DNA of 64,000 nt from an uncultured Planctomycetia bacterium (GTDB lineage: Bacteria > Omnitrophota > Gorgyraeia > 1-14-0-20-64-10): assembly GCA_964373715.1 (NCBI GenBank), contig CAYJVR010000001.1, positions 269,888-333,887 on the forward strand, read 5' to 3'. Below, in pieces: positions 6,193 through 64,000 of this stretch. The notes beneath the pieces are model-generated. The model searched no databases and was not told the DNA's origin. It saw only the letters and a program-made list of their open reading frames with translations. The translations under genes and the position numbers were made by a program. The first letter of the stretch is position 1. Every line of letters starts with the position of its first letter.

Positions 6193-6211
6193 GCTTTTTA
6201 AGGCCTCCTTT

Positions 6212-7279: not shown

Positions 7280-7286
7280 GGGGGTA

Positions 7287-48365: not shown

Positions 48366-49206
48366 AGTTGACCCGTGCGCCGACCCGGTTCAGATGAGAT
48401 GACCAGGGTTCGCGGGACGGCAGCAGCTTGAAGGCGGCGACATCCCGGCGGCCTGAGAGAGGGGGGTTGGCACGGTGAATCAAGTTTGAATCCCAGAAAA
48501 GCACCGTTCCCGCCGGTCCTTCGATCCGTGTCCCGTCATTCTCCAGCTCTTTTCGGAACGGTTCAGCACGGAACCGGTCGAAGAAACCCTTTCTCAGCAG
48601 CCGGCGCGTGCTCTCTTTCGAGTGCAGACCGAGCGCTCCGCTGGTTCTGTCGCACTCGGTGAGGTAGACCATGATTTTGTAAATCCCCGGGGGGTAGTTG
48701 TCCGTGTGCCACAGCCCGGAGAGGTTCGGAGGCGCCGACGTGGGAACGATCCGGTAAAGCTCGCTGGTGTAAATCTTGAAGTGCGACCCAAAACAAGCTT
48801 CGGCCACCGCGGCCACCTTCGGGTTGATCAGCTGCGCGATCTCCGGGACTCGCGCCATGCTTTCGTTAAACTGGAGGAACCAGTCCTCTTCAGGCAGCAC
48901 CCGGAGGTGGCCGGCGTTTGCTAGCTCCTCGCACTTCGAACGGATCGTTTCCAGCAGGCCCGGTTCATAACCGGGGTTGAAAATGACATACCCGTCCCGG
49001 CGGAAGTGTGCCGCGAAATCAGCTGCCTCAGGAGAAAGCGTTTTACCCGCGCGGCGGAAGGCCCGGCGGCATTCCGCGTGGTGCCGCAGGTACCGGAAGT
49101 TCTTGCCCCATGGGGTCCGGTTTCCGAAAATCGCTTGGTCCGGACGCAGGCCTTCCAGGCCGGGATACTGGTTCCGCAGGTTCCGGTAAATTGTTTTTAC
49201 GGTCAT
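48319..49206 (-). CDS. Fe(II)/2-oxoglutarate-dependent dioxygenase, PhyH-like
   Basis: H-x-D…H triad in LWHTDNYP and SNLIHRANPP, with an Arg in SGRRD. Confidence 0.6.
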   Translation of the reverse strand: MTVKTIYRNLRNQYPGLEGLRPDQAIFGNRTPWGKNFRYLRHHAECRRAFRRAGKTLSPEAADFAAHFRRDGYVIFNPGYEPGLLETIRSKCEELANAGHLRVLPEEDWFLQFNESMARVPEIAQLINPKVAAVAEACFGSHFKIYTSELYRIVPTSAPPNLSGLWHTDNYPPGIYKIMVYLTECDRTSGALGLHSKESTRRLLRKGFFDRFRAEPFRKELENDGTRIEGPAGTVLFWDSNLIHRANPPLSGRRDVAAFKLLPSREPWSSHLNRVGARVNYESRPEQTPADPSAD

Positions 49207-50423
49207 TTTGATTGCGTTCCGTTGACCGGCGGTTTCCCGTTCTTCTGCAGGCCTGCCAGGTACTGCGCCGCCGTTTCCCTGCGCCGGGGCCGCTTGATGA
49301 ACGCGGCCATATGATAGTTCGACATGAGGTCCGACATACCGACATCCGGCCGGAACTTGCGCACGTCCTCCAGGATGCCGCTCAGCCGCGTCTCCTCAAA
49401 CTGGTTCAGCAGCCGCGGTGTCATCGCGGCCCGGAAGTGTGTCAGGTGCGGCGGGTATAGCCGCCTGGACCCGATGAGTTCCATGTCGCAGCGGTCCGCC
49501 ATCCGGATATAGTCGTCCAGCGTCGGGCGCTGTTTGCCGAAATGGAAGTAGTTGTACCGGCCGAGCCAGTCCTCCTGGTCCTCCGGATGAAATTCCCGGA
49601 TGTAGCGCCGGAAATCCTCCGAGCTCAGCCGCTGGCTCACGTAGGGAAATTTCCCGATCACCAGTGAGGAATTGACCGGGAACCACCAGTTGTCGCTCAG
49701 GAAGACAAACATCCCCCCGTCAGGCAGCAGTTCGCTCACCTTCGCGATCTTCCGTTCAGCGTCAAAGCAGGGCATCGAGCAGATGGAGGTGATCAGGTCG
49801 AACTTCTGGTTTTCCACCGTGTAGAGATCCTGCACGAGGAACTTGTCGATCGCCGGCACCGCGCGCAGCCGCATGTTCCAGAAAACGGAGCCGGGCGGAG
49901 GCATATAGCCGAAGACGGCGAAGGTCCGGGTCAGCCGTTTCCCTCCCCAGGTATCTTCTCCGACCAGGAACCGCTTCATCCGCGGCGAGAACCGGGCCAC
50001 GTCACACGCGGTCTTGTAGCGGATCCAGTGCTTCAGGAAGCGTCCCGTGGACAGCCGCTTGCCGAAATCGGCCAGCTCCAGGTTGGCCGCCCACCCGGCC
50101 CGCCCTTCCCCGCGCAGGAACCGGGAGACGGTCCCTTCCGCCCCGCCGATGTCGAGGGACCTGTCCCATCTCTTTTTCACGCCGAGGCTCTCAAGGAAAT
50201 CGATCACGATCGAATATTCGTACGCGTCCTTGATGAACCCGTCGATCCCGAACGGGGTCATCCCCTCATACCCTTCCGGCGGAGGTGTGGTGTCCGACTT
50301 CCTCGCGTGGATGTGGGCTTCCTGGTAGCCTGGAATGCACGCGATGTTCTTCCCGAACGATGTTGTAAAATCTGTTTTCACCGTCTGTCCATTTGTTTTT
50401 TCCTCAGAAAGGCTGTTATGCAT
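49203..50423 (-). CDS. class I SAM-dependent methyltransferase
   Basis: LDIGGAEGTVSRFL motif I and FDLITSICSM. Confidence 0.6.
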   Translation of the reverse strand: MHNSLSEEKTNGQTVKTDFTTSFGKNIACIPGYQEAHIHARKSDTTPPPEGYEGMTPFGIDGFIKDAYEYSIVIDFLESLGVKKRWDRSLDIGGAEGTVSRFLRGEGRAGWAANLELADFGKRLSTGRFLKHWIRYKTACDVARFSPRMKRFLVGEDTWGGKRLTRTFAVFGYMPPPGSVFWNMRLRAVPAIDKFLVQDLYTVENQKFDLITSICSMPCFDAERKIAKVSELLPDGGMFVFLSDNWWFPVNSSLVIGKFPYVSQRLSSEDFRRYIREFHPEDQEDWLGRYNYFHFGKQRPTLDDYIRMADRCDMELIGSRRLYPPHLTHFRAAMTPRLLNQFEETRLSGILEDVRKFRPDVGMSDLMSNYHMAAFIKRPRRRETAAQYLAGLQKNGKPPVNGTQSK

Positions 50424-51225: not shown

Positions 51226-52406
51226 GATCTTTTCTCCTTTTGTTTAATCAACTCGGCGTACCACCGCTCGTAGGATACCGCCATGGTTTTTGCGTCAAAG
51301 TGGTTTTGAACGGTTTGTTTCGCCGCGGGTGTAAGTTGTCTGCCGAACGAAGGGTTCAGCAGTATCTTTTTGATTCCGCCCGCGAGCGCCGATGGGTTCC
51401 CGGGCGGAACCAGAAGCCCGTTCTTCCCGTTCAGGATGATCTCCGGTATCCCTCCCGAAGAGCAGGCGACCACCGGCACGCCGAGAGTCATCGCTTCAAG
51501 GACAGCGATGCCGAACGGTTCCCAGAGAGAGGGAAAGACGAACAGATCGCTTCCGTTCACCAGCGCTGGAGCGTCGTTCCTGGCGCCGAGGAAGCGGATC
51601 TGCTCCGACAGCCCCAATGCGCGGCTCTTTTTCTCGAGATGTTTTCGCTCGGGGCCTTCTCCCACTAGCAGGCATTCCAGGGGCAGATCCGGCTGGAGCT
51701 CTTTGATCGCTTCCAGCAAGACGCTATGCCCCTTGAACGGGACGAAGTTGGCCACTGTGACGATCCTCTTGCGGGCGGCCGTCTTCTGTTCCGGGCCGTT
51801 TGCCCCATTCGGAGAACCGTTGACTTGGGCTCGGACCTCTGCAACGTCCACGCTGTTGTGAATGACTCGGACCTTTGCCGGATCGATTTTCAGCCCCGGC
51901 CTGGAGCAAACCGCTTTTTTGACCGCTTGTGAGCAGGCGGCCAGGCCGTCGAAAGAGCGGTAGAGAGAGCGGTAAAACCCCGAGACCGCTTTCCACCGGA
52001 TGCGCCGGGCACCGTGCTCTGTTTCCCAGAGGAAATTGATCCCCTGGATCGTCGAGACGAGATGGGGCACCGGCGCCAGCCGGGTGGCGAAATAACCGTA
52101 CAGGTCCCCATGAAACAGGTGGGTGTGAACGATCTGCGGGTTCTCCCTCCGGATCAGTTTAGCGAGCCGTTTAACCGTCTTCAGCGTCGGAATTTTAGGG
52201 AAACTGAAGGCGATCCGCTTGACGCCCGGGATCCCGCCCAGCCGCCTGAAAAGCGGCGACGCCGGGCATACCACCGTGAGATCAAAATGGTTTTTGTCCA
52301 GGTGAAGCGCCAGAAGGCGAACCGTCGCCTCTCCTCCTCCCAGTGATCCGCTGGAAACGATGAACATGAGCCGGCTCTTTCGCGCCGCTGCGGCGTCAGC
52401 GCCCAT
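51222..52406 (-). CDS. glycosyltransferase family 4 (GT-B fold)
   Basis: VGEGPERKHLE…FVFPSLWEPFGIAVLEAMTLGVPVVACSSGGIPE. Confidence 0.75.
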   Translation of the reverse strand: MGADAAAARKSRLMFIVSSGSLGGGEATVRLLALHLDKNHFDLTVVCPASPLFRRLGGIPGVKRIAFSFPKIPTLKTVKRLAKLIRRENPQIVHTHLFHGDLYGYFATRLAPVPHLVSTIQGINFLWETEHGARRIRWKAVSGFYRSLYRSFDGLAACSQAVKKAVCSRPGLKIDPAKVRVIHNSVDVAEVRAQVNGSPNGANGPEQKTAARKRIVTVANFVPFKGHSVLLEAIKELQPDLPLECLLVGEGPERKHLEKKSRALGLSEQIRFLGARNDAPALVNGSDLFVFPSLWEPFGIAVLEAMTLGVPVVACSSGGIPEIILNGKNGLLVPPGNPSALAGGIKKILLNPSFGRQLTPAAKQTVQNHFDAKTMAVSYERWYAELIKQKEKRS

Positions 52407-53304
52407 CTTTTTTCTGCGCCAAAATATAAAGGGTCATCCCTGTTTCTCCGATCAGGCCAAGTCCGATATTCACCGGGACGGCGAGGCACCGGATGGCCGC
52501 CGATTTAAGCCGGTAAGCCCCGGAGGCCAGAGTTACGGAGGACTGTCTACCCGCCGCTGTTTCCTGTTTCTTCCCTCCGTGCAGCAGCCGGGTCACCAGG
52601 CCGAATTGGAGATGCTGGTGAAGGAAGCTCTCTCCCTGTTTCCAGCCGTTCGCTGTCCGCCGGATCTGAAAACCGTTCTTTTCAAGAAGGCAGGTTAAAG
52701 AGGTCCGGTTCCATTGGGTCACGTGGTTCGGCGGAAAATCCCAATCGTACCGGAACCGGGGCCACCGCTCCCTGTTCGGGACGCTCAAAACAAGGTAACC
52801 GTCCGGCTTTACTGCCGCGGCCGCCGCTTCCAGAAATTCTTTTGGAGCGGGGCTGTGCTCTAGCACCTCGAACGCGGTCACCACGTCGAACCGCCCGGTT
52901 TGTTTAAGCTCCCGGAGATCGCCGGTGAAGACCTCTTCCAGCCCGAATCGCTGCTTCGCGCTTTGGACCGCTTCGGCGTCAAAGTCAAAACCGGCAATCT
53001 CGTATCCGGCGGCTCCCGCGGCCGCGAGGAACTCTCCGGTGCCGCAGCCGACATCCAGCAGTTTCCCCCCTAAGGAGGGTGAATCCTTAAAAAATTCCCT
53101 GTGGTTCCACTGGAGTTTCGGCTTGGCGACCCTGTCACGCACGAGGTACATCTCCTGCCGGCGGTACCACTCCCCGTCCACCGAGGGCATCGGATCGGTG
53201 AAGACCAAGTCGCACGCGCTGCACCTCAAGAAATGGTACGGCGGCCGAGCTTCCTCTATCGGAGGACCCGAGACCGGCTCGGAGCAGGCCGGACAGTTGG
53301 GCAT
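52396..53304 (-). CDS. class I SAM-dependent methyltransferase with N-terminal zinc ribbon
   Basis: CPAC…(19 aa)…CSAC, followed by LLDVGCGTGEFL and FDVVTAFEVLEH. Confidence 0.65.
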   Translation of the reverse strand: MPNCPACSEPVSGPPIEEARPPYHFLRCSACDLVFTDPMPSVDGEWYRRQEMYLVRDRVAKPKLQWNHREFFKDSPSLGGKLLDVGCGTGEFLAAAGAAGYEIAGFDFDAEAVQSAKQRFGLEEVFTGDLRELKQTGRFDVVTAFEVLEHSPAPKEFLEAAAAAVKPDGYLVLSVPNRERWPRFRYDWDFPPNHVTQWNRTSLTCLLEKNGFQIRRTANGWKQGESFLHQHLQFGLVTRLLHGGKKQETAAGRQSSVTLASGAYRLKSAAIRCLAVPVNIGLGLIGETGMTLYILAQKKDGR

Positions 53305-54626
53305 CAGTGGACGATGAATCCCTCTTCTTTTGGCGCGCCGTGGCTTTTCCCGTTGCCTGGATGACCGTTCCCGGCACCGGAAGATGCCGGGACAGGCGGG
53401 AATTTCGGGTTGTAGTAGAGCCTTCGGTTCTTTTCCGAGAAGGTCCGGTCGTCCGATTGCGGCACTTGCGCTTCTTTCGCGCCGGGGTCCTGGATGTGGT
53501 GGATGATCGAATCAGTCACCCGCCACTTCCCGTTGGCCTCTTTTTTCCAGATCGAATGGTCCTTCATCGGTTCGACCGCCCCCTCGAACTCCGCCTCGGT
53601 CATCCCGAGGAACTTCAGGTAGAAATCGAGGCTCTTCGGCCTCACATGGTCGTACTCCCGGACCACCTCGATCCCCTCTTCGCGGGTCATTCGGCCGTAT
53701 CGGATTTCGGTGGAGGCGTCATCCGTTGACCGGCCGTAGCCGAACTTCAGGTACTTCATGTAGTCGTGCACCTCGTTCGCGTGGTCGTCGGTTTTCGCGC
53801 AGAGGTGGAATGTCTTGTCCCTCTTGCGGGCCAGCGGCTCGAATCCGCACTTCTCGAGCACCAACTCCGACTGGGCCTTCGGGTCCCAGTAAATGTAGTT
53901 GGTCAGGTAGATTCCCCGCACCCCGACCGATTCGATCTCTTCGTCGGTCGGATAGATGTAGGGGGCCAAATCCCGCATCGTGATGCCGCTTGCCGGGTCG
54001 TTCACGATGTCTTCCGGCTCGATCCCCCGCATGTCGTGTTCCTGGCGGACCCACTTCGTGAATTCCACCATGTCGTCCAGCGTGAAGACGCCGGTCAGCT
54101 CACCGTAATGCTCGGGCCAGACGATCAGAGGAACCTTGTACTTCACCGAGATCTGGAACGGCACCGTCATGATGCCGGCATGGTAGTGCCAGGTGATGTC
54201 GCCGACCCTCTTCACCATGTAGCGGGCGATTTTGCGGACAGATTCGGGGCTCGCGGTGAACCGGACCAGGTCCACGCCGAACCGGCTGACCAGGTTGTTC
54301 AGGTTCCGCAAGCCCAGCTCGGTGTTGAAGCAGTGGTTGAACGTGACGCACAGCGGGTTCAGCCCGTAGACCTCTTTGACCAGGTAGACCTGGAAATGGC
54401 TGTCCTTGCCGCCGCTGACCGGCACGATGCAGTCGTAGATCGCTCCCTGCCCCCTCTGCTTATCCCGGTATTCGGTCAACAGCTTCTCCAGCTTTTTCTC
54501 CCGGTCAGCCCAGTCTATCCGGTGGCGTGACTCGTGGTGACGGCAGCCGCTGCAGACCCCCTGCTCGTCGAAGAGGATAGTCGGTCTTGCGTTTTCCGGG
54601 TACAAACAACGCGCGCAGTATCTCAT
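53304..54626 (-). CDS. N-acetyl sugar amidotransferase (WbpG/WbuX/PseA family, PP-loop ATPase)
   Basis: N-terminal CARC…CSGC zinc ribbon and PP-loop VPVSGGKDS; adjacent to HisH/HisF homologs. Confidence 0.75.
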   Translation of the reverse strand: MRYCARCLYPENARPTILFDEQGVCSGCRHHESRHRIDWADREKKLEKLLTEYRDKQRGQGAIYDCIVPVSGGKDSHFQVYLVKEVYGLNPLCVTFNHCFNTELGLRNLNNLVSRFGVDLVRFTASPESVRKIARYMVKRVGDITWHYHAGIMTVPFQISVKYKVPLIVWPEHYGELTGVFTLDDMVEFTKWVRQEHDMRGIEPEDIVNDPASGITMRDLAPYIYPTDEEIESVGVRGIYLTNYIYWDPKAQSELVLEKCGFEPLARKRDKTFHLCAKTDDHANEVHDYMKYLKFGYGRSTDDASTEIRYGRMTREEGIEVVREYDHVRPKSLDFYLKFLGMTEAEFEGAVEPMKDHSIWKKEANGKWRVTDSIIHHIQDPGAKEAQVPQSDDRTFSEKNRRLYYNPKFPPVPASSGAGNGHPGNGKSHGAPKEEGFIVH

Positions 54627-55396
54627 CGGACCTCAATGCCTGCCTTTCGCAAATGTTCTTTCGCTTTTTTTGTGCTGTGTTCCGTGAAGTGGAAAACGTT
54701 CGCCGCCGAGACCGCTTCTACACCGGTCGAAATTCCTTCGGCCAGGTGTTCCCATTCAAACGCCCCGCCGAAAGCGATGACCGGGATGGATACCGCGTGC
54801 GCCACCTCGCGCATCAGTTCCAGGTCGTAGCCGTTCCGGGAGCCGTCATGGTCGATCGAGGTGAGGAAGATTTCCCCCGCCCCCCGGGCTTCGGCCTTTT
54901 TTGCCCACTCGACCGGCGTCATGGGCGTCGCTTCCCGGCCCCGGTCGATATAAACCCGCAGTCCGCCGGTCTCTCTCCGCACATCAATCGAGACCACGAT
55001 GCATTGACTGCCGAAAATTTTCGCGCAGTCGGTGATAAATTCCGGCCGGCGGACCGCTTCGGTGTTGACCGCCACCTTATCCGCTCCAAGCCTCAGCAGG
55101 TTCTTTACCTCCTCCGGCGATGTGACCCAGCCTCCCGCGGTCAGCGGAACAGTGCATTTCTTTGAAATTGCAGATATTGCGTCATAAAATTTCTGCCGGT
55201 TCTCTGTGGTGCGACTCACATCGAGCAGGACGATCTCATCCACCGCCCACTTGTTGAAGAAGTCAACTGCGGTTTCCGGCTTCCAATGGAGCACATTGGT
55301 ATGCCGGAATCCGACGCTCTGGACCACTTGGCCGTTACGCAGGATAAGGACAGGAATCAGCCGTTTTTTCAGCATAGTTTCGCGCAATTGACGCAA
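54623..55396 (-). CDS. hisF: imidazole glycerol phosphate synthase cyclase subunit homolog (HisF-like; LPS-type)
   Basis: KRLIPVLILRNGQVV…AGGWV…GADKVAVNT…[10 protein letters not shown]…IAFGGA. Confidence 0.85.
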   Translation of the reverse strand: MRQLRETMLKKRLIPVLILRNGQVVQSVGFRHTNVLHWKPETAVDFFNKWAVDEIVLLDVSRTTENRQKFYDAISAISKKCTVPLTAGGWVTSPEEVKNLLRLGADKVAVNTEAVRRPEFITDCAKIFGSQCIVVSIDVRRETGGLRVYIDRGREATPMTPVEWAKKAEARGAGEIFLTSIDHDGSRNGYDLELMREVAHAVSIPVIAFGGAFEWEHLAEGISTGVEAVSAANVFHFTEHSTKKAKEHLRKAGIEVR

Positions 55397-56006
55397 AGTT
55401 TTCCAGGAGTTTTAAGCCTACCCTCTGGCTTTTCTCCGGATGAAACTGAAGGCCATAAATGTTTTCTTTTTGGACGCTCGCTACAATTTCTGTCCCATGC
55501 CAGCATGTGGAAGTGATAACGGAATATTCTTCTGGCGCCACGACCATCTGGAAGCTATGAACGAAATAAAAAACAGGATCTTCCGGTAGTGCTTCAAATA
55601 AACCGCCGGTTTTTTTTATATCGAGATCGTTCCAGCCCATATGAGGAATCTTAAACTTCACGTCTGCAGGACGGATCCTTTTGACGCCGCTCTTAATCCA
55701 GCCAAATCCTGAATCAAGGCCGCCTTCTTCGCTGACTCCCTCGGCTAAAAACTGCATGCCCAAACAAATGCCTAGGTAGGGTTTTTTCTTTTCCTGCACT
55801 TCTTCGAAGAGGGGCTTAATTAATCCGGAGCGAGATAGATTCCTTATGCCGTCACTAAAAGCACCAACTCCGGGCACAACAATTGCTGATGCGTTTTGTA
55901 AATCAGCCGCTTTTCTCGCGATCTGCACTTTCTCGCCGATCGCCTCGAACGCGTTGGCGACCGACCGCAGATTCCCCATCCCGTAATCCACCAGCGCGAG
56001 CCGCAT
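55335..56006 (-). CDS. hisH: glutamine amidotransferase subunit homolog (HisH-like; LPS-type)
   Basis: [16 protein letters not shown]…PGVGAF…GICLGMQ…HSF…QFHPEKS (Cys-His-Glu triad context). Confidence 0.85.
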   Translation of the reverse strand: MRLALVDYGMGNLRSVANAFEAIGEKVQIARKAADLQNASAIVVPGVGAFSDGIRNLSRSGLIKPLFEEVQEKKKPYLGICLGMQFLAEGVSEEGGLDSGFGWIKSGVKRIRPADVKFKIPHMGWNDLDIKKTGGLFEALPEDPVFYFVHSFQMVVAPEEYSVITSTCWHGTEIVASVQKENIYGLQFHPEKSQRVGLKLLENFASIARNYAEKTADSCPYPA

Positions 56007-56650
56007 TAGTTTCTCACCGGGTAACCGCCCCTGCGATTCAGGAACGCTTTTGCTTTAATGGGGCTGATGTCGCGAAAATGGAATATAGATGCAGCGGCAG
56101 CGCCGGTAGCCAATCCCTGGCTAAATGCGAGCGCGAGATCTTCTAATTTACCTGCTCCGCCCGAGATGATTACCGGGATCTTCACTGCTTTGCAGATTGA
56201 TTGGGCAAGCTCAAGATCATACCCTTCCATGGTTCCGTCTCTATCTATCGAAGTGAGTAAGATTTCTCCGGCCCCTAACGCCTCAATCTTTTTCGCCCAA
56301 TCCAAAGGGTTCATTCCGGTCCCGTTGCTGCCGCTATGAGTCATGACTTCATATGAATTGCCATTCTTTTTTGCATCAATTGAAACCACAATGCACTGGC
56401 TGCCAAAGATCTTGGCCGCTTCTCTTATAAACTCCGGATTTTGAACCGCAGCGGTGTTAACAACAACCTTGTCAGCGCCAACAAGTAAAAGCTTTCGAAT
56501 ATCTTCGACGGTCCGAATGCCTCCGCCAACAGTCAGCGGCATAAAAACCCGCCCAGAAATTTCAGAAACGGCATTTGCTAATTGGTCAATGCCGCGCTCT
56601 TCTGTGGTTGCGCGAAAATCAAGAAAGACGAGTTCATCTGCTAGCTGGGC
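55380..56650. other. local GC dip (about 45-50% against about 60% in flanks), covering the standalone hisH and the HisF-domain half of the hisHF fusion
   Basis: 60-nt windows inside this patch count 35-50% GC, for example 55561-55620 about 35% and 56461-56520 about 42%. Flanking windows at 54721-54780 and 56881-57000 count about 60%. Confidence 0.55.
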
Positions 56651-57451
56651 GTCGTAGACCATCGGGGCCTTGACCGGGTGGCCGACGTCATGGCGGATGC
56701 CGTTTTCCTGGATCTGGAACCGGACCGTCTTCGTGAGCCGCCCTTTGTTGTACAAGAGGGTCGGGATCAGCCGGATGTTTGGCGTCTTTTTCTCGTTGGT
56801 TTTAAGGGTCCCCAAGGGTTCGGTTTCTTCAGTTGTTGGATCCCAGGTAAGAAAATTCTTTAACAGGCCGAGGCCGGCTTCCTGGCTCTTCTCCGGGTGG
56901 AACTGGACCCCGGCGATGTTCTCCTTGACGATCGCCGAGTGGAACGTTTCCCCGTATGCGGTGGTGGCGGCGACAGCCGCCAGGTTATCGGACACGACAT
57001 GGTAGCCGTGCACGAAATAGAAATAAGGGACCCGCTTCAATCCTTTAAAGAGGAAACTGGGCCGGGCCGGGACCGCTTCGTCCCACCCAATGTGGAGCGT
57101 TTTCAGAGAGCCGTTTCTTTTGAAAGGTTTAACGCCGGCGGACACCCATCCGAGGCCCGGATGCCGCCCCTGTTCCAAGCTCTCTTTCGCGAGCAACTGC
57201 ATGCCGAGGCAGATGCCGAGAAACGGGGTTTTCCTGACCCGCACTGTTTTTGTCAGCGGCCCGATCAGCCCAAGTTTGTCCAGGTTCTGCATCCCCTGGC
57301 CGAACGCGCCGACCCCCGGCAGAACGATCTTTTCCGCGTTCTCTATGTCGGCCGGACGGCTGGTCACCTGGACTTCGGCGTTCAGCGTTTCGAACGCCCG
57401 GGCGACCGAACTCAAGTTCCCCATCCCGTAGTCGATAATGGTAACCTTCAT
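56006..57451 (-). CDS. fused HisH-HisF homolog (glutamine amidotransferase domain + cyclase domain in one polypeptide)
   Basis: The N-terminal domain [16 protein letters not shown]…GICLGMQ…QFHPEKS and the C-terminal domain [18 protein letters not shown]…GGGI…GADKVVVNT…[10 protein letters not shown]…ISGGAG are joined by the linker [22 protein letters not shown]. Start set at MKVTI (ATGA overlap). Confidence 0.8.
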
Positions 57452-58647
57452 TCTTTCGCTCCCGGAGAGACCCATTTCTCCTGGTCCCAGAGGGGCGCCC
57501 CTTTTTCCACGTGGCGTAGGTCCGGTTTGTGGGGGTAGACCGCGTGCTCAAGCGCGATCTTATTGAACTCCTCTTCGGTCATGCCGACCAGCTTCAGGAA
57601 GACGTCGAGCGAGGCGGGCCGCTTGCCGTCGAATTCCGCCATCAGTTTCTCCCCCTGCTCGCGGGTCATCCGGCTGTTCCGGATATCAATGCTGGCCAAA
57701 TGGTTCGTCCGGCCCATCCCCCGCTTGATGAAGCGCAGGTAGTCCCGCACCCCCTGCAGATAGCATTCGATCTTTTCGTAGCCGTAGCCATCCGGGACCC
57801 CTTCGACCGCTTCCTCTTTCCAGCCCAGCTCCCGCTTGATCACCTCGACTTGGGCCTTGACGTCCCACGGAATGTAGGTCCCCAGGCAGATTGACCGGTA
57901 GCCGAGTTTTTTCAGCTCCTCCTTGGGCGGGTACCGGAACGGCTCCAGGTCCCGCTCGTCGATCCCTTGCCCGAGCATGCCGGCCATGTCCTCCGCGGTG
58001 ATCCCGAGGTTGATGTAACGGTTGAACCGCTTCTCGTCCACGAGTTCCTGCTCGTCCTGGCGGAAGTAGGCGTTGTACTCGGTATTCGGCTCCCCCCAGA
58101 TCACCAAAGGCACCTGGAACCGGATCGCCATCTGCATCGGGAAGGAGAAGATGCCGGTGTGGCAGTGCCAGCAGAAGTCTCCCTTCCTCTTGAGGCTTTC
58201 CACCATGAGCCGGCGCACCACCTTCCAGCCGGCCCGGAACTTGAGGAAGTCAACGCCGAGCGCCCGGATCGTCCGCTCGGTGTTCTCGATCACGGTCGGG
58301 CGCAGGAACCCGTGGTCGAAGCAGACCACCAGCGGTTTGAGCCTGAACTGTTTCACGAGCGTGTAGGCGGTGTAGGTGCTGTCCTTGCCTCCGGAGAACG
58401 GAATGATGCAGTCGTAGGCATACTTGCCGCGGTAGCTGTCGAGCAATCCTTCAAACTCACGCTTTTTGGCGGCCCAGTCGATCACCTGCTGTTTGTGCTC
58501 GATGTTCCGGCAGACGTTGCAGACCCCTTCGGCGTCGAACACGATCGTGTCGTGCGTTTCGGCGAGCAGGCAGCGGACACAGCGCCTCAGTTTCGAGGCG
58601 CTCTCCTGCAATGAGGAGCTTTCTTTATCGAGCGACGGGTTCGGCAT
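57448..58647 (-). CDS. N-acetyl sugar amidotransferase (WbpG/PseA family), second copy
   Basis: CVRCLL…CNVC zinc ribbon and PP-loop IPFSGGKDS; paralog of the 53304..54626 gene. Confidence 0.75.
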   Translation of the reverse strand: MPNPSLDKESSSLQESASKLRRCVRCLLAETHDTIVFDAEGVCNVCRNIEHKQQVIDWAAKKREFEGLLDSYRGKYAYDCIIPFSGGKDSTYTAYTLVKQFRLKPLVVCFDHGFLRPTVIENTERTIRALGVDFLKFRAGWKVVRRLMVESLKRKGDFCWHCHTGIFSFPMQMAIRFQVPLVIWGEPNTEYNAYFRQDEQELVDEKRFNRYINLGITAEDMAGMLGQGIDERDLEPFRYPPKEELKKLGYRSICLGTYIPWDVKAQVEVIKRELGWKEEAVEGVPDGYGYEKIECYLQGVRDYLRFIKRGMGRTNHLASIDIRNSRMTREQGEKLMAEFDGKRPASLDVFLKLVGMTEEEFNKIALEHAVYPHKPDLRHVEKGAPLWDQEKWVSPGAKE

Positions 58648-59734
58648 GCACCTTTTTCTCCGATCGGCTGACGACCATATCCCATGAGAGGGGCGTCCCC
58701 TTAGCGATGTCCCGCGCCGCCTTCTTTCCCAGGACCACCGGCAGTTCCTTCGGCGGAAGCCCGTGCGCGGGCCGGATCGAGCGGACGTTCCGCTCCGTGA
58801 AGATTTCCCCCTCTTTGATGTCGGCCACCACGAAGAGAGAGCGCCGGAACACCCTGTTCTTTTCCTCTTCCGGTGTTGCTTTGTAGTCGGGTGAGCCGAT
58901 CGCCTGCTCCACCATACGGATACCCTTCACCATCGCGGCGAACTCCTGCGGCTCGAGAGAGAAACCGGCGTCTGGCCCACCCTTCGCGCGGGAGAGGATC
59001 AGATGTTTCTCCACGATGCAGGCTCCGAGTGCCACTGCGGCCAGCGCCACCTCGGTTCCGAGCGTGTGGTCCGAAAGCCCGGCCGGCGCATGGAATGTTT
59101 TGGCCAGGTGCGCGATCGTCAAAAGATTCATGTCGGATGGTGTCGCCGGGTAGCCGCTGGTGCATTTCAAGAGCGCGATCTGTTTCGCGCCCGATTCCCG
59201 AGCCGTTTTCACCGCCTCGGCAATTTCACGGAGATTGGCCAGGCCGGTGGATAGGATCATCGGTTTCCCGGTTTTGGCAATCCGCTGAATGAGCGGGATA
59301 TCCACGATCTCAAACGAGGAAACCTTGTAGGCCGGCACCCCCATTTTCTCGAGGAAATCGACCGCGGTCGGGTCGAACGGTGAGCAAAAAAGATCGATCC
59401 CGGCCTCTGCGGCGACCTTTTTCAGCTTCGGCTGCCATTCCCACGGGGTGTGCGCTTCCTTATAGAGGTCGTGGAGCGTCCGGCCGGCCCAGGGGCTCCC
59501 CTTGCCGATCTTGAACTCCGGCCTGTCCGAATCGAGCGTGATCGTGTCCGGCGTGTAGGTCTGCAGTTTCGCCGCGTCGGCCCCCGCCTTTTTCGCGGCC
59601 CGGATCAGCTCCGCCGCCTGCTCGAAAGAGCCGCCGTGGTTGCAGGAGATCTCCGCCACCAGGTAAGCCGGGTGCCCCGCGCCGATCTTCCTGCCGTTGA
59701 TTTCGATAAAAGTTTTTTGTTCCCGCATCGTCAC
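58625..59734 (-). CDS. NeuB-family nonulosonic acid synthase (PseI/LegI/NeuB-like) with C-terminal SAF domain
   Basis: EISCNHGGS, metal-binding GLSDHTLG and VEKHLIL, and a C-terminal SAF/antifreeze-like domain (…GEIFTERNVRSIRPAHGLP). Confidence 0.8.
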   Translation of the reverse strand: MTMREQKTFIEINGRKIGAGHPAYLVAEISCNHGGSFEQAAELIRAAKKAGADAAKLQTYTPDTITLDSDRPEFKIGKGSPWAGRTLHDLYKEAHTPWEWQPKLKKVAAEAGIDLFCSPFDPTAVDFLEKMGVPAYKVSSFEIVDIPLIQRIAKTGKPMILSTGLANLREIAEAVKTARESGAKQIALLKCTSGYPATPSDMNLLTIAHLAKTFHAPAGLSDHTLGTEVALAAVALGACIVEKHLILSRAKGGPDAGFSLEPQEFAAMVKGIRMVEQAIGSPDYKATPEEEKNRVFRRSLFVVADIKEGEIFTERNVRSIRPAHGLPPKELPVVLGKKAARDIAKGTPLSWDMVVSRSEKKVHAEPVAR

Positions 59735-61089
59735 ATTTTCCTGAAAACGGGTTGAATGACAGGCCCTTCGAGCGACTGAAGCAGTTTCCCCTCTTTGAGG
59801 ATCTGCGACAGCAGTTCCAGCACGCTTCGGTAGACCATCAGCACTGATTCCACAGCCGTCTCGTCATGGGCGGCGCAGAGGTTGTGGGCCCCCGTGAACA
59901 GATAGCCACGCTTGATGCATTCCTGCTGGACGAAGGTCTTCATCGCCATTGCCTCCGGGTCCGGGTGGAATCCGATCCCGGTCCTCGGCGGCAGACCGGA
60001 GCACTCGGTCCTTTCTTTCAGGCAGTAGGCTTCGGCCAGCAGGTTGTACCCTTCTTTGATCTGCCGGCCCCGCGCCCAGATCCCTTCCAAGGTGCCCGGT
60101 TCCTCCATCGCCTGAATTGTGGCCAGCGCCGCCGCGATCGATGCGGTCTCACCTGCGAAGGTGAACGAGAAAAATATTTCGTCGAACAGCGCCATTACGT
60201 CGCGCCGGCCGACGATCGCCGAGACCGGCATCCCGTTGGCCATCCCCTTGCCGAAGCAGGCCAGGTCCGGTGTTACCCCGAAATGTCCCTGCGCGCCGCC
60301 TAAGCCCAGCCGGAAGCCGGTCACCATCTCATCGAAGACGAGCAGGGCCCCGTTCTTTTGGGCCAGCTCCTTCACCCCTTCGAGGAAGCCCTGTTTCGGC
60401 TCCGCGAGCCCGACCGGCTCCATGATCACCGCGGCGATTTTCCCCGGGTGCTGTTCAAACAGAGACTTCAAAGACTCAAGGTCGTTATAGCGGAATGTCT
60501 TTGTCAGCTCGGCAACCGCTTTCGGGACCCCCTTGTTCCGGGTGGTCGTGCCGACGTACCAGTCCTGCCAGCCGTGGTAGCCGCAGCAGGCGATCAGATC
60601 GCGGCCAGTGAAGGCGCGTGCCGCCCGGACCGCGGCTGACGTCACGTCGGAACCGTTCTTGCCGAACCGGACCATCTTGGCGCAGGGGATCAGCCGGGTC
60701 AGTATTTCGGAAAGCTCCACCTCGAGCGGGTGGCTGAGCGTGAAGACAGTTCCCTGTTTTGCCTGCGCCGCCACCGCTTGAGCGACGCGCGCGTCTCCGT
60801 AGCCGAGCATGAGCGCTCCCAGCGCCATCGAGAAATCGAGGTATTTGTTGCCGTCGATATCCCAGACAAAACAGCCGGAGCCCCGCTCCAGATAGACTGG
60901 CGCAACCCCCTGCACGAACTGGGAGGGGCCTTTGCTGAAGGTCTGCGAGCAGGCGGGGATTACCTTCTCGGCTCGTTTCTTCAACTGGCGGGATTTTTCC
61001 AGCGTCCGAGCGCGTGCCGCCAGTGCCGGCTTCTCGATCAGCGATTGGCAGAGTTCCTGGATTGACGTTGTTTCAGCTGTTTTTGGCAT
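59731..61089 (-). CDS. class III PLP aminotransferase, glutamate-1-semialdehyde 2,1-aminomutase (HemL)-like
   Basis: FDEMVTGFRLGLGGAQGHFGVTPDLACFGKGMANGMPVSA hallmark of the GSA-AM family, here inside a sugar-biosynthesis cassette. Confidence 0.8.
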   Translation of the reverse strand: MPKTAETTSIQELCQSLIEKPALAARARTLEKSRQLKKRAEKVIPACSQTFSKGPSQFVQGVAPVYLERGSGCFVWDIDGNKYLDFSMALGALMLGYGDARVAQAVAAQAKQGTVFTLSHPLEVELSEILTRLIPCAKMVRFGKNGSDVTSAAVRAARAFTGRDLIACCGYHGWQDWYVGTTTRNKGVPKAVAELTKTFRYNDLESLKSLFEQHPGKIAAVIMEPVGLAEPKQGFLEGVKELAQKNGALLVFDEMVTGFRLGLGGAQGHFGVTPDLACFGKGMANGMPVSAIVGRRDVMALFDEIFFSFTFAGETASIAAALATIQAMEEPGTLEGIWARGRQIKEGYNLLAEAYCLKERTECSGLPPRTGIGFHPDPEAMAMKTFVQQECIKRGYLFTGAHNLCAAHDETAVESVLMVYRSVLELLSQILKEGKLLQSLEGPVIQPVFRKM

Positions 61090-61687
61090 GGTTCGCAGAC
61101 CTGGACTTCAGATAGTCCGATTTCAGAATACCCATCACCGTTTTGTCCCGGAATGCCCCGTCCCGGAACAGCTGTTCCTTGAGGGTCCCTTCCACTGTGA
61201 AGCCGAGTTTTTTGTACGACCGGACAGCTCCCTCATGGTCGGCGTAAACGCCGAGTGTGATCTTATGCAGGTTCAGCCTCTTGAAGCCGTACTCCAGCAG
61301 CAGCTCCATCGCCTCGGAGCCGTACCCCTTCCCCCAGACCCTTTTGTCCCCCACCATGATCCCGATGTCGGCGTTCCGGTGCAGAGGGTGGATGTTCCCC
61401 AGCTTCACGTTGCCGACGTGGCGGTTGGCCTTCTTCTCGATAATCGCCAGCATGACGTTGTTCGGGTGCTTGGCGATGTTCTCCAGGTAGTTGCGCAGAG
61501 TGGCGGTTGTGGTCGGGAAAGAGCCGGTTTCCAGGAACCGGGTCACCTCGTAATTATTGAGCCAGTCAAAGTAGGGCCCGTCCAGGTCGGTCATCTCCAT
61601 CGGACGCAGGTAGATCCTGGCGCCGGTGAGAAATGGGTGGCGGAGTTCCCCCTCTTTCTTCTGTTGCCGAATGGCTGTTTTTGTCAC
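61073..61687 (-). CDS. GNAT-family N-acetyltransferase (RimL-like)
   Basis: GARIYLRPMEMTDL…HVGNVKLG…VWGKGYGSEAM acetyl-CoA binding motif. Confidence 0.75.
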   Translation of the reverse strand: MTKTAIRQQKKEGELRHPFLTGARIYLRPMEMTDLDGPYFDWLNNYEVTRFLETGSFPTTTATLRNYLENIAKHPNNVMLAIIEKKANRHVGNVKLGNIHPLHRNADIGIMVGDKRVWGKGYGSEAMELLLEYGFKRLNLHKITLGVYADHEGAVRSYKKLGFTVEGTLKEQLFRDGAFRDKTVMGILKSDYLKSRSANHAKNS

Positions 61688-61697
61688 GGTTTTTCCC

Positions 61698-62708
61698 CTA
61701 TTCCGGCCGGGTGGTCTGTACCGTTTCCCGGAAAGTCCCTTTTTCCCTCGCGGAGAGGGCCAGCTCCAGCGTGCGGCATCCTGTTTCGAGGTCAGCGGCC
61801 GGTTTTTCCCTGTTCGCGATGCAGTCGAGGAGATGGTTCATTTCCAGCAGGTACATCATGTTGCCGTCGTAAGATTTCTTGTCGAGCAGGGTTTCCCAGC
61901 TTTTCCGGGAGGCGTCGTAGCGCCGCACCAGGATTTTTTCGGGAGATTTCCCCTCGCTTTCCCAAACAAGCGTGCCGCGCGTGCCGATGATTTCGCAGCC
62001 CCTGAGCTTCACCTGGTTCAGGTAATCGGCCTCGATAACGCCGACAGCGCCCGAATCGAATTTGAGGACCATCAGAGCGGTGTCTTCCGTCTCGATTTCC
62101 AGGTTGCTCACCTTGTCCGCGAAGGCGTCGGCCACGGCCGCCTCCCCTCCGATCCAGCGGAGATAATCAATCTCGTGGAGACATTCCAGGATGATTCCCC
62201 CGCCTTGATTCGCCCTGGCGCTGTAGGTCGCCCGGTAATCGGTGCCCGGTCTCCAGTTTGGAAGGTAGTGGCTGAACCGGGATTTGAAGAAAAGAGGTTT
62301 CCCTATCTCTCCGGCGGCCAGCGACCGCTGCAGCGTTTCGACACCGGGATGAAACCTCATGTTGCAGCCGGTCAGCACCGCCTGCCCTTTGACCTCAGCG
62401 ACGATTCGCCAGGCTTCCTCCAGAGAGTCGGCCACCGGTTTCTCGATAAAAAGAGCGCATCCGGCCTTCAGGCATTCGATGGCCGGGTCGGCATGCTCGT
62501 GCGTCGGCGTGCAGATCAGAGCCGCGTCCGGTTTTTCCCGGAGAGCCTCTGTGAGCGAAGAGAAGCTCCGGACGCCGTGTGTTTTTGCTGTTTCTTCGAC
62601 CCGGGCCGGGTCGGTGTCAAAAACAATCACTTCCCCCGCTTTAAGCGTTAACAGGTTGGCGATGTGCCGTTTGCCGATTGAGCCGCAGCCGACAACGAGA
62701 AATTTCAT
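61698..62708 (-). CDS. Gfo/Idh/MocA-family NAD(P)-dependent sugar oxidoreductase
   Basis: MKFLVVGCGSIGKRH Rossmann N-terminus and EKP motif (ALFIEKPVA). Confidence 0.8.
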   Translation of the reverse strand: MKFLVVGCGSIGKRHIANLLTLKAGEVIVFDTDPARVEETAKTHGVRSFSSLTEALREKPDAALICTPTHEHADPAIECLKAGCALFIEKPVADSLEEAWRIVAEVKGQAVLTGCNMRFHPGVETLQRSLAAGEIGKPLFFKSRFSHYLPNWRPGTDYRATYSARANQGGGIILECLHEIDYLRWIGGEAAVADAFADKVSNLEIETEDTALMVLKFDSGAVGVIEADYLNQVKLRGCEIIGTRGTLVWESEGKSPEKILVRRYDASRKSWETLLDKKSYDGNMMYLLEMNHLLDCIANREKPAADLETGCRTLELALSAREKGTFRETVQTTRPE

Positions 62709-63415
62709 CTCTTGACCTCCTCCGGCGAACGCTCCAGAGCTTCCATCAGAGCTTCCGCGATCACCAAGTGCCCAGGTTCGTCAATGTCCACCGACCTCTC
62801 GCGCGGGATCTTCCAGCCGATTGTTTTATCGCTGAAAAGCCGTTTCTCCCGCCGGAGTGCATCCAGCTTCATAAAATAGAAATAGCCGGAGTCCACCCAG
62901 ACGGGGGGGAGTTTCTGCGAGGCCACCAGGTACTGTTCTCCGAAGAAAAGCTTCAGGAAGCCGTTTTCCTCCTGCAGCGCCCAGAACGGGGGCTCCAGGA
63001 AAGTGGTGATTGCCTGGCAGATCTCCGCGTTCCGTTCCTTTATCAGCGCGTAGCCGCCGCGCAGATCCTCCGGCCGCATCAACACCGCGGTCGGCAGGAT
63101 CAGGCAGAGAGTGTCCACCGGTTTTCCCTGTTCCTCCAGCCAGCCGGCGAAGTTGAGGCAGACGTCGGCAAGCCGGGCGGTATCGCCGGCCAGTTCCGGG
63201 GACCGCTCATGCACCCGGGCGCCGAACCGGGCGGCTGTTTCGGAGATCTCCTTGTCATCGGTGGAGACCCAGATTTCCGGAAAGAGCCCGCTAGCGGCCG
63301 CCGCTTCGATGGTCCAGCCGATCACCGGCTTCCCCTTCAAGGAGGCGATGTTCTTTCGGGGGAACCTCTTCGACCCGCCGCGCGCCGGTATCAAACACGC
63401 CAAATTCTCAGACAT
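62705..63415 (-). CDS. CMP-nonulosonic acid synthetase (acylneuraminate cytidylyltransferase, NeuA/PseF/LegF family)
   Basis: LIPARGGSKRFPRKN N-terminal signature. Confidence 0.8.
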   Translation of the reverse strand: MSENLACLIPARGGSKRFPRKNIASLKGKPVIGWTIEAAAASGLFPEIWVSTDDKEISETAARFGARVHERSPELAGDTARLADVCLNFAGWLEEQGKPVDTLCLILPTAVLMRPEDLRGGYALIKERNAEICQAITTFLEPPFWALQEENGFLKLFFGEQYLVASQKLPPVWVDSGYFYFMKLDALRREKRLFSDKTIGWKIPRERSVDIDEPGHLVIAEALMEALERSPEEVKR

Positions 63416-64000
63416 GGTCCCAGGTGATCCCCTCGTTTTCGGCGATCTCCTTGAGCGCCGGTTTGCCCAGGAAATAGCCGAGGTACTCCGGCGATATCCC
63501 GTTCTCCGGGCGCATCCCGATGAGGTGCTCTTCGGTCAGAACCGTCCCCTTTTTGATCGGGGTCCGGGCCGCCAGGTGCCGGAACCACTTCTTCCTCTCG
63601 GCCTGGTCGGCCTGGCTTGGGATCAGGTCGGGAACGCCGACGCCGTCCTGCACCTGCCGTAAAACCTTCACATGCTCGGCGAACTCTTTCGGTTCGAGCG
63701 ACAGCACGTGATGGTGGCCCGGCAGAGTCCGGCTCATCGTGAGCCTCTTCTCCAGCACCGAGGAGCCGAGCGTCACCGCCATGATGTCCGGCGCCGGGTC
63801 CCGGTCGCGCGACGAATAGCCGGCCACCGTTTGGAATGTTTCCTTCAGGTAGGGGATCGTTGCCATGTTCAGCTCGCCGTAGGTGTCGGCGTGGCAGCAG
63901 TGGACAAGGACCGACTGGTCGTTGCCCTGCTCGATCATCAGTTCGATCACCTTGGCCGCGTCCGTTACATCCACCGGCCCGGTGTCTATCAGCATCGGCT
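63408..64000 (-). CDS. second NeuB-family paralog (C-terminal part only; gene continues past window end), with both conserved metal-binding His replaced
   Basis: It aligns to the first NeuB-like protein: GYSSRDRDPAPDIMAVTLGSSVLEKRLTMSR against GLSDHTLGTEVALAAVALGACIVEKHLILSR. The SAF-like C-terminus is retained (TPIKKGTVLTEEHLIGMRPENGISP). Confidence 0.5.
   Translation of the reverse strand, partial: PMLIDTGPVDVTDAAKVIELMIEQGNDQSVLVHCCHADTYGELNMATIPYLKETFQTVAGYSSRDRDPAPDIMAVTLGSSVLEKRLTMSRTLPGHHHVLSLEPKEFAEHVKVLRQVQDGVGVPDLIPSQADQAERKKWFRHLAARTPIKKGTVLTEEHLIGMRPENGISPEYLGYFLGKPALKEIAENEGITWDHV

Follow-up and report, generated by a model that had tools for sequence, protein, structure and literature searches.

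The window, by which we mean the whole 64,000-nucleotide stretch of DNA that was analysed, carries part of a surface-sugar gene cluster from an uncultivated bacterium, probably one of the Omnitrophota. It includes on its minus strand, between nucleotides 53304 and 58647, five ORFs in the order AT-A, HisH::HisF fusion, HisH, HisF and AT-B (Table 1). The ORF search recovered each of them where the first-pass annotation had proposed an amidotransferase, a fusion, a HisH, a HisF and a second amidotransferase. Every junction among the five genes is an overlap, pointing to translational coupling: the AT-A stop codon is overlapped by the ATGA start of the fusion, the fusion stop and the start of the stand-alone HisH share the sequence TAATG, the start of the stand-alone HisF runs 41 nt into HisH, and the HisF stop overlaps the AT-B start, again as ATGA. 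The start that gives the fusion 481 amino acids agrees with the NCBI-derived protein P0001. About 52 kb of the window consists of further glycan genes.

Table 1. Features of the five-gene block and of its flanking genes.
Feature	Coordinates	Strand	Characteristics
SAM-dependent methyltransferase	52396-53304	minus	PF13489, E 5e-28; TGATG overlap with AT-B
AT-B, second NASAT	53304-54626	minus	440 aa, C-terminal extension; putative catalytic unit of module 2
HisF, stand-alone barrel	54623-55375	minus	250 aa from ATG at 55375; module 2; full ORF 54623-55396
HisH, stand-alone glutaminase	55335-56006	minus	223 aa; module 2
HisH::HisF fusion	56006-57451	minus	481 aa from MKV start at 57451; longest ORF 56006-57475, 489 aa
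Fusion, HisF-like (beta/alpha)8 barrel, WbuZ-like	56006-56776	minus	PF00977, E 9e-68
Fusion, linker	56777-56845	minus	about 23 aa, joins the two domains
Fusion, HisH-like class-I glutaminase domain	56846-57451	minus	PF00117, residues 13-209
AT-A, NASAT (PP-loop ATP pyrophosphatase and Zn-ribbon)	57448-58647	minus	399 aa; putative catalytic unit of module 1
PseI-type nonulosonic acid synthase	58625-59734	minus	TIGR03586, 480.2 bits (cut-off 340.25)
Class-III aminotransferase	59731-61089	minus	family match
GNAT	61073-61687	minus	family match
Gfo/Idh/MocA oxidoreductase	61698-62708	minus	family match
PseF-like cytidylyltransferase	62705-63415	minus	family match
NeuB2, divergent NeuB-like synthase, C-terminal part	63412-64000	minus	196-aa fragment, truncated by window edge

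Judged by their sequences, AT-A and AT-B are both members of the N-acetyl sugar amidotransferase (NASAT) family, TIGR03573 WbuX subfamily. A profile search with this NCBIfam model, whose cut-off is 203.2 bits, gave 352.3 bits (E 3e-105) for AT-A and 358.6 bits (E 4e-107) for AT-B, E-values that are far beyond chance. NASATs are defined by a tetracysteine motif, CXXCXn[GN]XCXXC, and a PP-loop, SGGXDS (PMC10607449); the respective sequences are CVRC...GVCNVC from residue 23 and SGGKDS at residue 85 in AT-A, and CARC...GVCSGC from residue 4 and SGGKDS at residue 71 in AT-B, in agreement with the PP-loop amidotransferase identity first proposed for both. Sequence comparison with the solved NASAT structure 8WEX (LpNASAT) matched residues 33-360 of AT-A (E 3.5e-31, 112 bits) and 11-351 of AT-B (E 6.1e-42, 147 bits), in both cases at low identity.

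The GATase (residues 13-209) and His_biosynth (residues 256-470) domains of the fusion lie in one unbroken frame, with no stop codon or frameshift between them, as the annotation of a 481-amino acid HisH and HisF fusion had claimed. Its glutaminase half scored 210 bits against TIGR01855 (HisH, cut-off 105.4 bits) and keeps the catalytic motifs GICLGMQ and FHPE. The AlphaFold model of the fusion has a pLDDT of 92.4 and a pTM of 0.92, with low pLDDT limited to model residues ~205-225 and 247-249, and Foldseek superposed it on yeast His7 (1OX4/1JVN) across both domains with a TMq of 0.85; in this model the glutaminase is predicted to dock on the base of the barrel in the His7 geometry. The domain order, with the glutaminase at the N-terminus, is shared with His7 and with rare prokaryotic his-type HisHF proteins; unlike these, the window fusion lacks the cyclase residue Asp11, has a short linker and has a NASAT gene as its neighbour, not his-operon genes. 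Fusions of this kind also occur outside this locus. Twenty-two independent relatives (54-68% identity) have its length and architecture, and when aligned all 22 read TLL, like the window fusion, where cyclases have CLD. Close relatives of the same architecture form about 25 clusters, and more distant fused forms adjoin single NASATs in several phyla. Asp11 is absent from 27 of the 42 prokaryotic HisH::HisF fusions sampled; the other 15 have CLD, and these his-type fusions are located in his operons. Prokaryotic HisHF fusions have already been reported (PMC1963479). The fusion that the first-pass annotation considered unusual is thus real, but such proteins recur in prokaryotes, in glycan loci as well as in his operons.

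For both HisF-like barrels the top NCBIfam family was TIGR03572 (WbuZ), with 276.7 bits for the fusion barrel and 261.6 bits for the stand-alone HisF, under the cut-off of 299.7 bits. The scores with NF038364 (AglZ/HisF2; 242 and 220.3 bits, cut-off 310) and TIGR00735 (HisF; 261 and 239 bits, cut-off 294.55) were likewise under their cut-offs. Both barrels are encoded beside a NASAT and a HisH-like glutaminase, which is the WbuZ-type context. Asp11 is replaced by Leu in the fusion barrel, within the 11-residue segment that aligns to RIIPCLDVKDG of solved HisF, and by Ile in the stand-alone HisF, where the region reads RLIPVLILRNG; Asp130 is retained in both. Asp11 is absent from every NASAT-adjacent HisF homolog examined, and all his-operon copies keep CLD. 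Since both lack this cyclase residue, neither barrel is expected to make histidine. The stand-alone HisH scored 215 bits against TIGR01855, a model that does not distinguish his-type from glycan-type HisH, and keeps the Cys, His and Glu motifs (GICLGMQ and FHPE). It is scarcely credible that HisH, HisF and the fusion are histidine IGP synthase genes lying by chance in a glycan cluster: although the TIGR01855 cut-off is exceeded and the barrels match HisF strongly, the Asp11 substitutions, the TIGR00735 scores, the translational coupling to NASAT genes and the retention of CLD by true, his-operon fusions all speak against it, and no hisA, hisB, hisI or other his genes were found near the five-gene block in the window.

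Within the locus, paralogs are 38% (AT), 45% (HisH) and 47% (HisF) identical; between loci, orthologs are 70-82% (AT-A), 76-86% (AT-B) and 68-82% (HisF) identical. In the tree of amidotransferases AT-A and AT-B fall in clades with bootstrap values of 99 and 100 respectively, each with orthologs in other lineages, and the stand-alone HisF groups with the HisF adjoining the AT-B ortholog of locus L010 (support 87.5); the branching order of the HisH tree was without resolution. The low identity of the paralogs and the separate clades indicate that the locus joins two old subfamilies and did not arise by local or recent duplication, so that describing it as a duplicated set is misleading. Nor is the arrangement a one-off. 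Seven or more other metagenomic loci have the five-gene block in the same order, and an unfused version is present in L010, from a Rhodospirillaceae MAG, where the modules, arranged as AT-A-H-F and H-F-AT-B, lie five genes apart. These orders define the boundaries of the two modules: module 1 would consist of AT-A and the fused HisH::HisF, and module 2 of HisH, HisF and AT-B. Every part of the double module belongs to a known kind of enzyme; their pairing is genuine and recurs in other loci. The AT-A module alone, with one PseI-type synthase, was found in L169 (Nitrospira MAG) and L170 (Rokubacteria MAG). We consider it improbable that AT-A and AT-B are subunits of one heteromeric amidotransferase that yields a single product, with both HisH/HisF sets as its ammonia inlets or with one set in a regulatory role. 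The strictly conserved gene order and the translational coupling would fit such an enzyme, as would the dimeric state of LpNASAT in crystals, but the residues of the NASAT dimer interface are not conserved across the family (PMC10607449), both amidotransferases have full catalytic motifs, AT-A-type modules exist alone, and the L010 modules are separated.

The gene directly upstream of AT-A, whose end overlaps the AT-A start, encodes a PseI-type nonulosonic acid synthase, orthologs of which (58-71% identity) adjoin AT-A-type genes in most related loci; L167 keeps both modules, with no PseI-type ortholog within the stretch fetched. The upstream cassette (59731-63415) is repeated in L081, L083, L085, L166, L167, L169, L170 and L171. 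Next to it, at the window edge, lies NeuB2, a fragment whose identity is 58% with the L081 protein and 33% with PseI of the window; NeuB2 proteins fall under the cut-offs of both the NeuB and the PseI models. A NeuB2 ortholog is found in the window and in all six readable fused double-module loci, five of them having 63-77% identity to the protein of the sixth, L081. The second NeuB of L010 has 28% identity to NeuB2 and is not an ortholog. The block travels with nonulosonate genes while the remainder of each cluster differs, and this, together with the fact that no WbpA/B/D/E/I-like set was found near the block, makes it doubtful at best that module 2 modifies a non-nonulosonate sugar of the same glycan, in the way that WbuX and WbpG act on FucNAc or a 2,3-diacetamido uronic acid, even though characterised NASATs take diverse N-acetyl sugars (PMC10607449) and the window contains many other glycan genes.

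Taken as sequence evidence, these features suggest that the five genes probably encode two separate glutamine-dependent machines for amidine formation, each self-contained and acting on a different substrate, whose target chemistry would most likely be the conversion of N-acetyl groups on sialic-acid-like sugars to acetamidino groups. As we infer the mechanism, the HisH-like glutaminase of each module would hydrolyse glutamine, and the HisF-like barrel, no longer a cyclase, would conduct the ammonia. The NASAT would spend ATP to activate the carbonyl of an N-acetyl group on the sugar, probably by forming an O-adenylyl imidate, for displacement by ammonia, yielding the acetamidino group, AMP and PPi; this reaction and its PP-loop rationale have been described for NASATs (PMC10607449). 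Different substrates are proposed on the grounds that the two NASATs come from different old subfamilies, each co-evolving with its own ammonia-delivery pair. The occurrence of the AT-A module alone with a single PseI, and the added NeuB2 in double-module loci, also suggest two insulated machines with different substrates. The favoured assignment is that module 1 acts on a PseI-derived, pseudaminic-type nonulosonate and that the acceptor of module 2, which could be another nonulosonate or an intermediate from a later step, is linked to the divergent NeuB2. The suggestion of the first-pass annotation that there are two different amidino decorations or substrates is plausible, a reading strengthened by the conservation of the block and by its co-variation with a second NeuB-like synthase in a sample of about nine loci versus two, which are phylogenetically related. 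On the other hand, the cassette includes only one cytidylyltransferase, more in keeping with one activated sugar than with two, and the L010 locus, whose second NeuB is not a NeuB2 ortholog, and the L167 stretch, which has both modules but no PseI-type ortholog, also weigh against the favoured reading.

With a single cytidylyltransferase, both modules could instead act on one nonulosonate at two N-acetyl groups, either N5 and N7 or including a third introduced by the Gfo/Idh/MocA oxidoreductase, the aminotransferase and the GNAT, to generate a di-acetamidino sugar. This alternative, which we regard as rather unlikely, agrees with the tight coupling of the five genes, which keep a strict order as a single block in eight or more loci. 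It also agrees with the fusion, in L085 and L167, of the oxidoreductase to the class-III aminotransferase, an arrangement implying that oxidation and transamination follow one another, steps that could add an extra amino group. Against it, the AT-A module occurs alone with the same three enzymes in L169 and L170, so that these do not require module 2, and module 2 co-varies with NeuB2. In addition, a di-amidino nonulosonic acid was not found in the searchable literature, and the amidino nonulosonates known to us bear the group at N5 only. Should the double module nevertheless make an undescribed nonulosonic acid, a speculation to which we give limited credence, the product could be a 5,7-di-acetamidino pseudaminic-type sugar or an amidinated tri-amino sugar with the extra amine from the oxidoreductase, aminotransferase and GNAT. 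A sugar of this kind would be cationic overall rather than acidic, and the two conserved members of the Capsule_synth family may polymerise it on the cell surface of Omnitrophota and further uncultivated bacteria.

The first-pass annotation correctly likened the locus to the wbuXYZ, wbpG-hisH2F2 and pseA systems. Acetamidino groups are formed by trios of the WbuX/WbuY/WbuZ and WbpG/HisH2/HisF2 types (PMC10607449), and E. coli O145 and P. aeruginosa O5 have the same combination of NASAT, HisH-like and HisF-like proteins in a surface-glycan locus. These are single trios of separate subunits acting on FucNAc or ManNAc3NAcA, whereas the window has two trios, one with fused subunits, amid nonulosonate genes, and barrels under the WbuZ cut-off. 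An archaeal form of the trio that makes an acetamidino sugar, AglX/AglY/AglZ of Methanococcus maripaludis, is a single unfused set with an N-glycan uronic acid as substrate; both window barrels match its model NF038364, under the 310-bit cut-off. Also related are C. jejuni PseA (Cj1316c) and PtmG (Cj1324) and L. pneumophila ORF28/LpNASAT (8WEX), NASATs whose reaction is the amidination of CMP-pseudaminic or CMP-legionaminic acid at N5 (PMC3766260; bioRxiv 10.64898/2026.04.20.719630), the PtmG-type enzyme converting CMP-Leg5Ac7Ac to CMP-Leg5Am7Ac (PMC3766260). C. jejuni illustrates that one organism can use paralogous NASATs for two different nonulosonates; a difference from the window is that the two Campylobacter NASATs are not adjacent. 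To our knowledge C. jejuni has only one HisH/HisF-like pair, Cj1314c/Cj1315c, for PseA and PtmG, so that each NASAT may not strictly need a pair of its own. A further parallel is the methyltransferase PtmH/ORF8, which N-methylates the amidine: the methyltransferase coupled to AT-B in the window, which has an ortholog with 72% identity at the equivalent position in L167 and a counterpart there in L083, may modify the amidino sugar.

The ORF listing of the window includes five consecutive minus-strand genes, exactly where the first-pass annotation had located them, with the structure AT-A, HisH::HisF fusion, HisH, HisF and AT-B. AT-A and AT-B are two N-acetyl sugar amidotransferases (NASATs); AT-A and the fusion are referred to as module 1, and HisH, HisF and AT-B as module 2. 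The identity proposed earlier for the two amidotransferases holds, as AT-A (352 bits) and AT-B (359 bits) exceed the cut-off of 203 bits of the NCBIfam N-acetyl sugar amidotransferase family TIGR03573, and both include the four-cysteine zinc motif CxxC...GxCxxC and the PP-loop SGGKDS, following the definition of the family motifs (PMC10607449). Every junction along the block is overlapping (ATGA, TAATG, 41 nt, ATGA, and then TGATG into the next gene), which points to translational coupling of the genes. Both amidotransferases are homologous to the Legionella NASAT of structure 8WEX, to our knowledge the only NASAT structure solved.

Coordinates of the features of the block and its surroundings
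Feature	Locus	Coordinates	Strand	Remarks
NeuB2 C-terminus	window	63412-64000	minus	at window edge, upstream of cytidylyltransferase
NeuB2 ortholog	L081	3066-4109
NeuB2 ortholog	L083	1675-2718
NeuB2 ortholog	L167	1681-2652
Gfo/Idh/MocA oxidoreductase	window	61698-62708
GNAT	window	61073-61687
Class-III aminotransferase	window	59731-61089
AT-A	window	57448-58647	minus	399 aa; TIGR03573 match
HisH::HisF fusion	window	56006-57475	minus	ORF of 489 aa; database copy P0001 starts MKV (57451), 481 aa
HisH	window	55335-56006	minus	223 aa
HisF	window	54623-55396 (as listed)	minus	250 aa from ATG at 55375
AT-B	window	53304-54626	minus	440 aa; TIGR03573 match
SAM methyltransferase	window	52396-53304	minus	N-terminal CxxC...CxxC; TGATG overlap with AT-B
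ORF without Pfam hit	window	49203-50423	minus	406 aa
ORF without Pfam hit	window	46791-48365	minus	524 aa
Capsule_synth (PF05159) protein	window	45331-47946	minus	tandem with next
Capsule_synth (PF05159) protein	window	43881-45365	minus

In the fusion ORF, residues 13-209 form a class-I glutaminase domain and residues 256-470 a His_biosynth barrel, both in one frame. That this is a genuine single protein, as initially claimed, was confirmed by the uninterrupted ORF, which has no frameshift, and by 22 independent relatives of the same length and architecture (54-68% identity). An AlphaFold model generated from a 42-sequence alignment is confident (pLDDT 92.4, pTM 0.92), and together with the continuous ORF and the relatives it rules out a frameshift or assembly artefact. 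Both domains of the model together superpose on the yeast IGP synthase His7 (1OX4/1JVN) with a TMq of 0.85; the glutaminase is thus predicted to sit docked on the barrel in the manner of a true ammonia-tunnelling enzyme.

The Cys and His-Pro-Glu motifs are intact in both glutaminase units. The two barrels keep Asp130 but lack the cyclase catalytic residue Asp11, the corresponding segments being IPTLLYNKG and IPVLILRNG versus IPCLDVKDG in solved HisF. Among the loci collected, Asp11 is missing from every NASAT-adjacent HisF homolog and kept by every his-operon copy. WbuZ (TIGR03572) is the first-ranking family for both barrels, yet they score below its cut-off, and neither reaches that of the HisF family. 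On these sequence features both barrels appear to be glycan-type ammonia-channel paralogs and not histidine enzymes, a histidine-pathway role being ruled out by the loss of Asp11 and the gene context. With the missing Asp11 as a simple marker, annotation pipelines could tell glycan-type HisF paralogs from histidine-pathway enzymes.

The fused architecture itself, which the first-pass annotation had considered unusual, proved to be less so. Asp11 is absent from 27 of 42 prokaryotic HisH::HisF fusions sampled, while the other 15 keep the CLD motif that holds it in histidine-pathway copies. One of the latter, the 484-aa protein P0037 (locus L168, 10001-11455), lies among hisIE, hisA, hisZ, hisG, hisB, hisC and hisD; it represents a genuine histidine-pathway fusion from a prokaryotic MAG. 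Fused Asp11-less proteins adjoin a single NASAT gene in MAGs labelled Planctomycetales, Ignavibacteriales, Chitinophaga, Nanoarchaeota and others, often with PseI/PseF genes nearby. A 2007 survey knew only three prokaryotic hisHF fusions (PMC1963479); compared with the many sampled now, this indicates that the architecture is under-described rather than rare. In the genome contig scan, loci L012-L080 were for the most part canonical hisH-hisA-hisF operons, and a metagenome contig scan with the fusion alignment detected no further double modules, only distant single-module fusions. A separate group of proteins of about 700 aa (P0026-P0033, P0050 and others), one of them named from Candidatus Peregrinibacteria, matches GATase, His_biosynth and several other TIM-barrel Pfam families; these may be HisH-HisA-HisF fusions.

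The first-pass interpretation is partly upheld; its description of the block as a duplicated set is misleading. The in-locus paralogs are only 38% (AT), 45% (HisH) and 47% (HisF) identical, while orthologs across loci share 70-82% (AT-A), 76-86% (AT-B) and 68-82% (HisF) identity. Neighbour-joining places AT-A and AT-B in separate clades (bootstrap values 99 and 100), each including other lineages; the HisH phylogeny has support of 22 or less at key nodes. A recent tandem duplication is ruled out by these identities and by the amidotransferase and HisF trees. The complete five-gene block was found again in L081/L082, a JGI contig, L083/L084, L085, L166, L167 and L171, the last an Omnitrophica MAG. 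The 90%-identity cluster of AT-B holds a protein whose name derives from a Candidatus Omnitrophota MAG, and on this one member the window is probably of the same phylum. In L010, from a Rhodospirillaceae MAG, one AT-A-type and one AT-B-type gene are located five genes apart; each has a HisH and a HisF of its own, both unfused, in the orders AT-A-H-F and H-F-AT-B. These orders fix the module boundaries, AT-A going with the fusion and HisH plus HisF with AT-B, and the stand-alone HisF of the window groups with the AT-B-adjacent HisF of L010 (support 87.5). The closer orthologs, the separate clades, the recurring block and the split in L010 together define the locus as two old modules whose pairing is conserved. 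Its parts, by their sequences, all belong to known families, the barrels as sub-threshold WbuZ-like proteins; they make up a conserved dual module, one of whose ammonia-delivery units is fused, inside nonulosonate loci of uncultivated bacteria, and we found no published description of this arrangement.

Inserted genes are found between fusion, HisH and HisF in L166 (10143-11255 and 11890-13032) and L171 (12342-14593), from which it follows that module 2 tolerates splitting. Their products are membrane-anchored and SGNH/GDSL-like by eye, with no Pfam hit on record, which ruled out the two unannotated ones as extra NASATs. L171 includes further genes between HisF and AT-B, among them a PhyH gene and two genes that match GDSL-family Pfam models.

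Upstream of the block are genes for a PseI-type synthase that passes the equivalog cut-off, a class-III aminotransferase, a GNAT protein, a Gfo/Idh/MocA oxidoreductase and a PseF-like cytidylyltransferase, followed by NeuB2, a second, divergent NeuB-like synthase. Full-length NeuB2 orthologs score about 206-224 bits for NeuB (NCBIfam cut-off 400) and 175-188 for PseI (cut-off 340). In L085 (2355-4694) and L167 (3353-5665) the oxidoreductase and a GSA-aminomutase-like class-III aminotransferase are fused into a protein of about 770-780 aa, which implies consecutive oxidation and transamination; these steps could place an extra amino group on the sugar. A formyltransferase replaces GNAT in L083 (4425-5480).

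NASATs turn acetamido groups of sugars into acetamidino groups (PMC10607449), and family membership suggests this chemistry for both modules. A ptmG-type enzyme forms the acetamidino group on CMP-legionaminic acid, after which a PtmH-type methyltransferase can N-methylate the amidine (PMC3766260). An AT-A-type module occurs alone, fused in L169 (Nitrospira MAG) and unfused in L170 (Rokubacteria MAG); in both loci the oxidoreductase/aminotransferase/GNAT set is again present, with just one PseI-type synthase. NeuB2 is absent from these two loci and present in the window and in every fused double-module locus whose DNA was read, a co-variation seen in a small sample of related loci. L010 has a second NeuB that is not orthologous to NeuB2, and the stretch of L167 that was read has no PseI-type ortholog. 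The contrast between AT-A modules alone with a single PseI and double modules with NeuB2 favors a reading in which the modules are two amidine-forming machines insulated from each other, each with a different acceptor; that of module 1 would be linked to the PseI product, that of module 2 to something NeuB2-dependent. The presence of only one cytidylyltransferase in the cassette is a caveat to this reading, and the main alternative is that both modules amidinate a single sugar. No di-amidino nonulosonate was found in the searchable literature, so that such double amidination, if true, would be new chemistry.

An acidic nonulosonic acid that gains an acetamidino group has its charge neutralised or inverted, and such groups influence antigenicity as well as recognition by phages or antibodies in Campylobacter and Legionella. 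If one conserved cassette does hold two insulated machines, nonulosonate chemistry still to be explored would be expected in Omnitrophota, and probably elsewhere among uncultivated bacteria. We know of no structure of any NASAT docked on a HisF-like ammonia channel; the enzyme pairs of the modules offer a concrete test of such docking, for whose reconstitution the naturally fused protein would be a convenient single-chain ammonia donor.

Downstream of AT-B are the coupled methyltransferase, a GT4, another methyltransferase, a PhyH-like protein and two Capsule_synth-family proteins. The coupled methyltransferase, kept at the same position in L083 and L167 (72% identity), might N-methylate the amidine by analogy with PtmH and Legionella ORF8. 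The tandem Capsule_synth pair is conserved downstream of the cassette (L081 16951-19964, L083 17716-20496, L169 14190-17266), and its products are candidate nonulosonate transferases or polymerases. The larger ORF of the pair (871 aa) overlaps the 524-aa ORF, and its 5' end has probably been set too far upstream. The 406-aa ORF also lacks an NCBIfam hit, and proteins of about 505 aa without Pfam hit are found at similar positions in L081, L083 and L085.

Beyond the Capsule_synth genes a large LPS/capsule supercluster extends down to about 11.5 kb. It includes four minus-strand genes for PMT_2 (ArnT/GT-C-like) membrane glycosyltransferases (20067-21632, 29043-31172, 37061-38440 and 41728-43065). 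Some adjoin genes for GT2 and DegT proteins, which suggests that the locus combines several lipid-linked sugar transfer systems. An Rfam scan of the whole window gave no hits. Just before the supercluster, among the housekeeping genes for TIM, PGK, GAPDH, Fmt, PriA and UDG, two tandem paralogous GalT/HIT-like nucleotidyltransferase genes (5197-7363, minus strand; 375 and 383 aa) overlap by about 110 nt.
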